A stretch of 42,835 nt of DNA. Origin: a virus. Taxonomy: Duplodnaviria; Heunggongvirae; Uroviricota; Caudoviricetes. Every line of letters begins with the position of its first letter. Positions within the stretch are counted from its first letter, which is position 1. Shown here one piece after another: positions 38,441 to 42,214 of this stretch. The DNA is taken from the IMG/VR virus record IMGVR_UViG_3300001336_000001, positions 1-42,835 of that record; one strand, 5' to 3'. The notes below the pieces were generated by a model. The model ran no database searches and was not told the origin of the DNA. It was given only the letters and a program-made list of their open reading frames with translations. A program made the translations under genes and the position numbers.

Positions 38441-39208
38441 TTACCTAATTTTAACGTGTTCTATAATTCTTAAATTATTAGTATTAAATATAATATATTC
38501 ATAATCTTTATAATTAAAACCATCATAACCACATTTATTAAAAAATAATGAAACATATTTTTCGTAGCTAAGGGGTTTATGATTAAAATAATATATAAGG
38601 AAATCATTAATATCTCTACCTTTATTTTTTTTCAACTCATAAAATATTTCTTTATTTATAGTATTTGGTTTTTCAATCAATAATAGATTTTTGATATTTG
38701 AAATATCATTATTTATTTCATCATGTTCTTTATTGTTTCTAACTTTATATAAGGCATCCTCTAATTTATATAGTAAACTTTTTAAGTCAGAAATACTATA
38801 TATACTATATTCTCTTAAACTAACATATTTATTGTTTGTGTTAATTTCATTTCTAATATTTTCAAATTCTCCATAGCCTAAATTAACTTCAATTTCTTGA
38901 ATAAATTCATCAGTTATTTTATAATCAAGTGGTAATAAATTCAAATTTGATTTATCAACTATTGTCATATAATCCCCATAATCAGATGCTTTAAATGCAG
39001 TTGAAGCAAAATAAATACCCCAACCATGAATTCCTCTATGTGCACCTTTAATATATTCTAATTTAAACTCATGTCTAAAATCATCACTACAATGATACAT
39101 AACATTTTTATTTGAATATTTGTTGCTTATACTTTGGGTTGTGTATTGTATCACTTGTTCATTCAAATATTGACGTAGAGTTGTCGTGATAAGTTTTCTT
39201 GATTCCAT
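38441..39208 (-). CDS. ADP-ribosyltransferase-fold protein (ART-PolyVal-like) with YLNE leader
   Basis: MYHCS…F…HGWGIYFAS…KASDYG…GYDGF…EYIIF pattern matches H-Y-E-type ART cores. TATTTATA motif at 39233-39240. Confidence 0.6.
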   Translation of the reverse strand: MESRKLITTTLRQYLNEQVIQYTTQSISNKYSNKNVMYHCSDDFRHEFKLEYIKGAHRGIHGWGIYFASTAFKASDYGDYMTIVDKSNLNLLPLDYKITDEFIQEIEVNLGYGEFENIRNEINTNNKYVSLREYSIYSISDLKSLLYKLEDALYKVRNNKEHDEINNDISNIKNLLLIEKPNTINKEIFYELKKNKGRDINDFLIYYFNHKPLSYEKYVSLFFNKCGYDGFNYKDYEYIIFNTNNLRIIEHVKIR

Positions 39209-40214: not shown

Positions 40215-40355
40215 TTATTTATTATTAACCTTAAATTATGTTATTTTTTAATTTAAGCAAAGATAGTGATAATATTTTAATTATGTGGATTAATTTAAAA
40301 AAAAATTCCCTTACGGATTTATATAATTACCAGCTCAGTTATTAGCAGTTATTAG

Positions 40356-40672
40356 TTGTGGTTATTACCAACTGTTTCACGCTTTTTGTTTCGAGTAACC
40401 ATGTTGGATATACCTTTCAAATTGTGGTTATTACCAACAACACAAATTAAATAACGATGATAGTATTCGTTGGATATACCTTTCAAATTGTGGTTATTAC
40501 CAACAACACCCATTGGATTACGTTGGATATACCTTTCAAATTGTGGTTATTACCAACATTATTTGATGAGCATCTTCAAGCACAATCGTTGGATATACCT
40601 TTCAAATTGTGGTTATTACCAACACAGATGAATTTTATTTGTAAATACTATTTGTTGGATATACCTTTCAAA
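40356..40672 (-). CRISPR. CRISPR mini-array: four full 36-nt repeats, two terminal half-repeats, five spacers (30, 30, 17, 30, 30 nt)
   Basis: Plus-strand repeat GTTGGATATACCTTTCAAATTGTGGTTATTACCAAC at 40403, 40469, 40522 and 40588. The 17-nt half is at 40356-40372 and the 19-nt half at 40654-40672. Confidence 0.95.
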
Positions 40673-40820
40673 GCAAACCAATTGTCGGGGTATTTACCGA
40701 GTGCGTTATATATAATATATCTATTATCTTTCATATATTAATTAGTTATTAACACCTCAGTTTAAGGCTGTCCAACCAGCCCGACATTTAAGTCAAAATA
40801 TCAAAGAACTTTTTTCTTTA
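40673..40820 (-). ncRNA. Putative tracrRNA/omegaRNA-like scaffold fused to the first CRISPR half-repeat
   Basis: Own promoter TATATTTG at 40826-40833. Stems ATGTCGGG/CCCGACA, GCTG-GTTGGA-CAGC, ACTGAGGTGTTA/TAACGCACTCGGT and TAATATAT/ATATATTA. The loop GTTGGA is complementary to the repeat 3' end TCCAAC. Confidence 0.7.
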
Positions 40821-40844
40821 TAGTACAAATATAGTAATTATTTT

Positions 40845-42134
40845 TTATACTTTCAACAATTCTGTTTCTTTTTTTTCTTTATTTTTTGAATATTTTTCAA
40901 TTTGTTTTATATAATCTTTCGTATGTGCGATTGATATATTTTTTGATGCATTAAAATCTGCGTTATCTTCGAAGTCACAATTCTGACATTTAAATTTTGA
41001 TTGCGATATTCTATTATCTTCATGTATATGACCACAATTTGAACATCTTTGTGATGAATACCTTGGGTTGATTAAATTAACGGTTATTCCGTATTTTTTT
41101 GCTTTATATTTAATCATTGTCTGCAATTCATGATATGACCAGTTTCTTAGAATGAATGAATTTTTTTCATCTTTACCAATACCTTTTAGGTTTTCGATAT
41201 TTATGATTGCGCAGTTATTTTTAATTGCTGCATTAATAATTTCTTTTGATATTGTATGGTTCATTGTTTTTGCAAAATTTCTTTCTTTGATTCCCAAAGA
41301 GTCGAGTTTTTGCATTTTTTTAGTTCGACCTTTACCACCATTTGTATATTTAAGATTTTTGCTAATATTTTTTCTTTGTTTTTGTATTGCTAATCTTACT
41401 TGTAAAAATGATTCTGAACACCCTATTGCTTGTCTAAATTTTTTATTAGTATTAACTGACACGTATGCTGGGTGTGTAATACCTAAATCCACACCTAAGA
41501 CATTATCCTCAATGAGGTTTACTTTTGTTTGGGGTATATCAACAACCATTAACATGAATAATTTATTATCATAGAATTTAAAAGACGAATCACACATTTT
41601 ATATTGGCCAGATATAACTTTATCAACAATTTCCCTATTATTTGACCTATCTCTTCCGAATTTCATTCTAAATGGGATTGAAAAGAATTCAAATGAAGCT
41701 CCAGAATCGTCCATTTGTAAACCTCTAATCGATTTTGACATAAATAATAATGGGAAATCTTTTTTATAAGAGATTATTGATGATTCACCTTTAAGAACAT
41801 CCTTTATGGAGTTTCCAAAATTTGAGAATACGTAAGAATTTATACAACTTCTATAAGATGATGGTAATGTTTCTCTATATTTTTGTGCAAATACTTTATA
41901 ACCCAAATTTCTTTTTGAGGTCTCCAAATATTCATTTAATGATTTTTTGTTACTTGGGTCAATATCTTTATTAATACTATCTAAGAAATAAGTTGACTGC
42001 AAAAGATTCATTATATCATTTGCGTAATTCCTAGATGTATTTGACCAATCCCTAAGGGTTTTATAAAATTCTTTTTTTAGTTCAGTATTTGATTCAGAAA
42101 CGAAGACTTCTATTTTTCTTGTTATTACACTCAT
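40845..42134 (-). CDS. cas12f: Cas12f-family (type V-F/TnpB-derived) miniature RNA-guided nuclease
   Basis: 429 aa. RuvC triad D216 (GVDLG), E314 (IENL) and D393 (NADFNA) is intact. Zn finger CSNC…CQNC. Collinear similarity by eye to AsCas12f1 (SYKKDFPL, NWSYHELQ, YSSQRCS). Adjacent to a CRISPR array. Promoter at 42154-42161. Confidence 0.85.
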   Translation of the reverse strand: MSVITRKIEVFVSESNTELKKEFYKTLRDWSNTSRNYANDIMNLLQSTYFLDSINKDIDPSNKKSLNEYLETSKRNLGYKVFAQKYRETLPSSYRSCINSYVFSNFGNSIKDVLKGESSIISYKKDFPLLFMSKSIRGLQMDDSGASFEFFSIPFRMKFGRDRSNNREIVDKVISGQYKMCDSSFKFYDNKLFMLMVVDIPQTKVNLIEDNVLGVDLGITHPAYVSVNTNKKFRQAIGCSESFLQVRLAIQKQRKNISKNLKYTNGGKGRTKKMQKLDSLGIKERNFAKTMNHTISKEIINAAIKNNCAIINIENLKGIGKDEKNSFILRNWSYHELQTMIKYKAKKYGITVNLINPRYSSQRCSNCGHIHEDNRISQSKFKCQNCDFEDNADFNASKNISIAHTKDYIKQIEKYSKNKEKKETELLKV

Positions 42135-42214
42135 GATTTTTATTTTAGTTTTACAAATATAAGAATAATATTTTAATTATGCAAATTAATTTTTAAATTT
42201 TGATTTATTTGTTT

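Follow-up and report, generated by a model that had tools for sequence, protein, structure and literature searches.

The window, by which is meant the whole stretch of 42,835 nucleotides that was analysed, belongs to a complete virus genome of 287,855 bp with direct terminal repeats, and carries on its minus strand a cas12f gene, a tracrRNA-like scaffold and a short CRISPR array (Table 1). The encoded protein matches the PADLOC profiles for Cas12f (9e-115) and Cas12u3 (3e-110), and its top match in the PDB is 9NZO (506 aa, 1e-70), which we take to be Al3Cas12f. Three RuvC residues (D216, E314 and D393) that are invariant among 55 homologues are all intact, as are four invariant zinc-finger cysteines; TnpB-derived and within the range of 400-550 aa, the protein has the features of a V-F1 effector. 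The rest of the locus agrees with that assignment: the tracrRNA lies between gene and array and is predicted to pair with the 3' end of the repeat, and the array downstream holds distinct spacers and has no linked cas1 or cas2. At this locus the gene adjoining the array is cas12f and not cas13b. A first-pass annotation of this DNA had remarked that cas1 and cas2 are missing from the window, which holds and extends to the complete genome, where neither gene gave a match although positive controls were detected. We infer that the protein is a nuclease acting against rival mobile elements. The same phage carries a second, distant TnpB-like gene (G000:C1:72808-73377, L004; 32% identity, in a 412-aa frame).

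Table 1. Features of the cas12f cassette and its array (coordinates are those of the window)
Feature	Position	Strand	Basis or remark
cas12f, 429 aa, V-F1 (former V-U3), Al3Cas12f-like	40845..42134	-	PADLOC, PDB, invariant columns
Putative -7 promoter box TAnnTTTG ahead of scaffold	40826..40833	-	sequence; kept in alignment
tracrRNA-like scaffold	40673..40810	-	alignment of 17 loci; fold z -2.3
tracr-side first repeat, 19 nt, fused to scaffold	40654..40672	-	exact match to plus-strand repeat positions 1-19
Spacer S5, first transcribed	40624..40653	-	also in L191, there the last spacer
Four full repeats with spacers S4, S3, S2 between	40403..40623	-	sequence
Spacer S1, last transcribed	40373..40402	-	no match among relatives
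Trailer repeat, first 17 nt as transcribed	40356..40372	-	exact match to plus-strand repeat positions 20-36
10-nt tandem duplication with the repeat's TAATAAC word, directly past trailer	40336..40355	-	sequence

Within the scaffold, a hairpin (40766-40781) presents the loop GTTGGA (40771-40776), which is complementary to the last 6 nt of the repeat. Loop and repeat end covary in several lineages across the clade, the pairs being GTTGGA with TCCAAC, GTTGGT with ACCAAC, GTTGTA with TACAAC and GTTATA with TATAAC, and are mismatched in a few loci (L107, L124 and the inner repeats of L178). The TAnnTTTG word ahead of the scaffold is presumably a Bacteroidota-type -7 promoter box, and guide RNA transcription would start from it; a sigma-70 promoter scan gave hits at chance level only, and an Rfam search found two tRNAs and nothing else. 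The GUUGGA loop recurs, together with a CACUC motif, in the MG119-3 and Al3Cas12f tracrRNAs, and the crRNAs of these two systems have the ending AUAUCCAAC in common with the window repeat (PMC13186708, supplement). Because of these shared scaffold motifs and the shared crRNA end, the array is read on the minus strand, behind cas12f and the tracrRNA, so that the first repeat is represented by its 3' end, the 19-nt piece, and the last by its 5' start, the 17-nt piece. A CCGAC-like word right before the repeat remnant, complementary to a GTCGG at the start of the scaffold, occurs in the subclade with a fused first repeat (window 40682-40688 and 40780-40786, minus strand; also L085, L165, L178, L188 and L189) and was not seen in the deeper-branch cassettes with a full first repeat (L005, L181, L086 and L090); the two words may pair into an additional stem that would close the single guide.

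The array itself comprises four identical full repeats of 36 nt (40403-40438, 40469-40504, 40522-40557 and 40588-40623) set between the two partial ones, with spacers of 30, 30, 17, 30 and 30 nt. As the first-pass annotation had stated, the terminal pieces total exactly one repeat (17+19=36 nt), with zero overlap and zero gap. The repeat likewise has, on the plus strand, the paired ends GTTGG and CCAAC and the start GTTG-N7-CTTTCAAATT that had been reported for it; the annotation gave the spacers as 30 nt and left unmentioned the short S3, which has 17 nt and shares its final 5 nt with S2. No further copies of the repeat occur in the 287,855-bp genome. The duplication just past the trailer is suggestive of a slippage-like scar. 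A 94-aa ORF across the array (40457-40741, plus strand) was taken as spurious.

The repeat was at first regarded as resembling those of Bacteroidota type II-C and VI-B systems rather than those of Cas12f, and as a host repeat that the phage had grafted onto its guide RNA. Searched in 401 sampled Bacteroidota genomes, the motif GTTG-N7-CYTTCAAAWT retrieves host arrays that have 46-47-nt repeats beside cas1 and cas9, or 36-nt repeats beside cas13b. The window repeat agrees with two of the latter, VI-B, repeats at 26/36 (G131) and 25/36 (G327) positions (inner-shuffle P about 1e-4), and its array has the VI-B format of a 36-nt repeat, a GTTG-N7-CYTTCAAA antisense motif and 30-nt spacers. With II-C repeats it shares 15-17 of the first 21 nt, and the clade consensus shares 11 of 12 nt with the leader-side end of one II-C repeat family; as a II-C array the locus does not qualify, its repeat having 36 nt where the retrieved II-C repeats have 46-47, no cas9 adjoining it and the genome being without cas1 and cas2. 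The likeness to host repeats therefore stands, and the preference over Cas12f repeats falls: to other Cas12f loci, comprising most near relatives and two distant ones, the agreement is 29-32/36, and this clustering with V-F repeats had been named beforehand as an outcome incompatible with a graft. When the repeat pattern was sought in 185,579 species genomes, matches in arrays occurred only at chromosomal Cas12f loci of Bacteroides and Phocaeicola (26/36).

In the wider family, the repeat format tracks protein clades (7 changes against 23.6 with shuffled labels, a figure that speaks of clustering only). The formats seen by clade (L005-L164) are 36/30 GTTG..CAAC, 36/30 GTTTT..AAAC, 29/32, 32/35, 29-30/36 and 38/36, and from length and sequence we take GTTTT..AAAC to be II-A-like, 29/32 I-E-like, 32/35 I-C-like and 29-30/36 I-B-like. 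Since format follows protein clades, it is probable that the formats were taken over from other CRISPR types early and repeatedly, and not by the window phage; and since the repeat end covaries clade-wide with the tracrRNA loop, a recent graft by this phage is not what is seen. A design in which a grafted II-C or VI-B repeat and its half-repeat ends served host Cas1-Cas2 loading, or acted as homology arms, accords with the agreement of 25-26/36 to two VI-B repeats, the 11 of 12 nt shared with one II-C leader-side end, the phage's want of cas1 and cas2, and the II-C to VI-B trans adaptation shown in Flavobacterium columnare (PMC8092290). It is nevertheless very improbable, as the same repeat class runs through the Bacteroidota Cas12f clade, occurs on chromosomes too and changes in step with the tracrRNA, the ends are not conserved, and the half that was lost is the leader-side half; moreover, the spacers of the L191 array, three window spacers included, found no host-array match in the 401 Bacteroidota genomes, where the best hits were repeat matches. 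Capture of host spacers through half-repeat homology arms was also considered and is unsupported in the 401 genomes sampled.

Two of the host-side observations may be recorded here. Among the 401 genomes, no host repeat agrees better with the phage array than that of G131; G131 is a Cas13b genome, possibly incomplete, with two VI-B-type arrays (L242 and L243) and no matched Cas1. The chromosomal loci L199, L200, L202 and L203 in Bacteroides and Phocaeicola each pair a Cas12f of about 490 aa with a tracrRNA and an array of 1-5 spacers in differing neighbourhoods, three of the four have the same conserved small gene next downstream, and L200 and L202 show internal repeat deletions; to judge from its sequence context, this unit looks like a mobile cassette.

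How the two ends came to add up is best approached through the relatives. In the sister cassettes L191/L192, cas12f differs from that of the window at 10 of 1290 nt (99% identity) and the flanking genes are unrelated; L191 and the window have the same scaffold, the same repeat and three spacers in common (S2 and S4, of 30 nt each, and S5). The ends of L191/L192 nonetheless differ from those of the window, with a first repeat of 35/36 nt and a trailer of 30 nt. At the tracr side the window junction is 20 nt shorter than that of L191, its placement being ambiguous by one T, and over about 70 nt of distal flank the two are wholly unlike. In L171 and L195, the relatives that follow, the first repeat is down to about 12 nt, and the trailer of L195 is a full repeat. 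The tracr-side junction thus varies among cassettes with near-identical proteins, as between L189 and L190 and among the window, L191 and L171/L195. Across 19 other arrays, from which L055 was excluded, in which the consensus of L173 was mis-called, and where the ends of L005, L182, L086 and three chromosomal loci were scored by eye, the first repeat is cut to 11-14 nt in seven and the trailer is cut or decayed after 14-30 nt in six. In none of the 19 are both ends trimmed, or the ends complementary, the 99% identical sister cassette included, and the complementary halves are therefore not a conserved design. Trailer repeats of the host II-C arrays L246 and L248 are trimmed on the same side as those of the phage arrays.

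We consider it most probable (roughly 0.7) that the complementary ends are a coincidence of two separate, common deletions, that is, of wear in a stand-alone Cas12f cassette. A Cas12f guide takes in the 3' portion of a repeat together with the spacer that follows it; the first repeat could therefore do without its 5' portion, and the last repeat without its 3' portion. Loss at the 5' side of the first repeat would also fuse the remnant to the tracrRNA, giving a natural single guide, and loss at the 3' side of the last repeat would also spare an extraneous guide. As no other directions of trimming would be tolerated, the terminal pieces would come from opposite halves, and the exact total of 36 nt would then be coincidental. 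Given both cuts, uniform cutting would produce an exact 36-nt sum in about 3% of cases, and when the relatives' end lengths are cross-paired, 7 of 54 combinations reach 36, a rough figure from a small sample with one value taken from a degenerate trailer; the sum is therefore weakly beyond chance (about 3-13% given both cuts). The array bears further scars of rearrangement, namely the 17-nt spacer with its neighbour's ending, the 10-nt duplication after the trailer and an altered spacer order, and half repeats fused to the tracrRNA have already been described in this Cas12f branch, which is without cas1, cas2 and cas4 (PMC10691335). Against wear, the double-cut state of the window is itself rare, being unmatched among the 19 arrays, and the permuted order of the three shared spacers is left unexplained by simple erosion. 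A tree, from which 18 loci were left out as their protein was not recovered by the filter, places the window and L191 within the cassettes that have 12-nt first repeats, and because of this nesting the direction from an L191-type to a window-type array is unproven.

That permutation is the point at which a single event enters, in which part of the array, excised between two repeats as a circle, opened within a repeat between positions 17 and 18 and was then re-inserted or copied back. The three spacers in common are ordered S5, S4, S2 in the window and S4, S2, S5 in L191, a circular permutation; closing the window array at both pieces gives S4, S3, S2, S1, S5, and the order seen in L191 is contained in this circle. 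The exact complementarity of the pieces and the entirely different distal flank of about 70 nt would also follow. The permutation has little power, however, since circular permutation accounts for two of the five non-identical orders of three spacers, and spacers can likewise be permuted by unequal crossover between repeats. In addition, the junctions lack a shared core, the empty site was not found in the relatives compared, the tracr-side junction resembles a plain 20-nt deletion, and a second example is absent from the 19 other arrays; a literature search on circular array rearrangement returned nothing relevant. One such circular event is thus unlikely. A general form of the idea, that phage Cas12f mini-arrays reshuffle as circles opened inside repeats, in one step permuting the spacers and making a single guide of a new first spacer by its fusion to the tracrRNA, while the repeats stay extendable in trans by Bacteroidota II-C Cas1-Cas2, would be more doubtful still. 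Tandem duplication of one guide unit was rejected as a source of the ends, the spacers being unrelated and relatives having full repeats.

Arrays do differ among strains, and a mixed phage population might in principle have yielded the ends or the spacer order as artefacts of assembly. This is scarcely credible, as both partial repeats abut unique DNA with no shared overlap, which would be abnormal for a misjoin, 5'-trimmed first repeats recur across many independent assemblies, and the genome is complete, terminal repeats included. Within the arrays of the clade there are also chimeric or duplicated spacers, the first spacers of L086 and L089 having a 15-nt start in common, and near-identical pairs (spacers 5 and 6 of L090, spacers 2 and 7 of L006); such spacers show frequent recombination within these arrays.

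If wear accounts for the ends, the array must still have been filled. Near-identical cassettes, compared across phage variants, carry differing spacers, and as the phage is without cas1 and cas2, an outside source probably loads them. It is plausible, and on balance we favour the view from analogy, that the arrays of the clade are loaded in trans by host Cas1-Cas2. In F. columnare, in line with what the first-pass annotation had said of Flavobacterium, a VI-B array is served in trans by the II-C machinery, II-C Cas1 being required for spacer gain and the leader lying at the corresponding end (PMC8092290). That system and the window have in common a 36-nt repeat, 30-nt spacers, a leader-distal motif, reading from the leader side and the lack of adaptation genes of their own; they differ in the effector, which in the window is Cas12f with a tracrRNA and not Cas13b. 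In II-C arrays the leader sits at the repeat end equivalent to the tracr side here, and a host II-C-type Cas1-Cas2 would add spacers at that end, in cassettes with a full first repeat. In L191 the five unshared spacers all lie at the tracr side, and the first two repeats carry the same variant first base, which fits copying of the first repeat at the latest insertion; among the arrays compared, degenerate trailers are distal. By analogy with host arrays, the 19-nt first repeat of the window would hinder canonical loading, its leader-side half being gone, and loading would therefore use an inner repeat or stop. Two mismatches temper the analogy: the retrieved II-C repeats, at 46-47 nt, are 10-11 nt longer than that of the window, which leaves a mismatch of ruler (the II-C repeat of F. 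columnare has 36 nt), and the F. columnare acquisition motif would fall 5 nt off the PAM site that Cas12f requires. A Cas1 match was found in only one of five candidate genomes, all incomplete. No protospacer for PAM assignment was found for about 108 clade spacers in the phage genome (G000) and all collected loci, nor in IMG/VR by exact-seed search, where matches carried 9 mismatches over the full spacer, in the INPHARED phages or in the 401 Bacteroidota genomes.

The window system is, then, a member of a known Cas12f family, carried by a phage and equipped with the Bacteroidota-format repeat that is usual in that family, and the complementary ends matter little alone, since they are most likely strain-level wear. 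The protein belongs to the same family as Al3Cas12f/Cas12f-MG119 (V-F1, former V-U3; 1e-70; PMC13186708) and differs in being shorter (429 aa), phage-borne and, to judge from the sequence, supplied with a first guide to which the scaffold is natively joined. On the path from Cas12f to sigma-linked dCas12f a half repeat also lies beside the tracrRNA and is fused to it (PMC10691335; PMC13472631); the window differs in its intact RuvC site and in the multi-spacer array retained behind the fused guide. The Cas12r of phage Lalka (bioRxiv 10.64898/2026.04.20.719267) is likewise a phage-encoded type V system that has no adaptation genes, its repeat and its spacer length are host-like, its array grows at the gene-side end, and host loading has been proposed for it; it is unlike the window in its effector, its lack of a tracrRNA, its type I-E-like repeat and its Thermus host. 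The compact 429-aa clade from large Bacteroidota-type phages is thus kin to an efficient genome editor, Al3Cas12f; its natural tracr-repeat fusions, with 11-19 nt of repeat, show how short a guide junction can be; and L191 and the window form a matched pair, with a full and a trimmed first repeat, for how Cas12f arrays that lack adaptation genes gain spacers.

A 255-aa ORF upstream in coordinates (window 38441-39208, minus strand) has a weak ART-PolyVal match (E 0.01, under the cut-off). The genes neighbouring the cas12f cassette (window 40845-42211; L191, L171, L195, L165 and L188) are unrelated in each case and, with a repeated phage promoter element flanking it, the cassette therefore appears to move as a module. 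Between 9441 and 35300 the window holds dozens of copies of a promoter/ribosome-site element, each upstream of small genes, and a separate multi-copy element of about 100 nt (families D1-D16).
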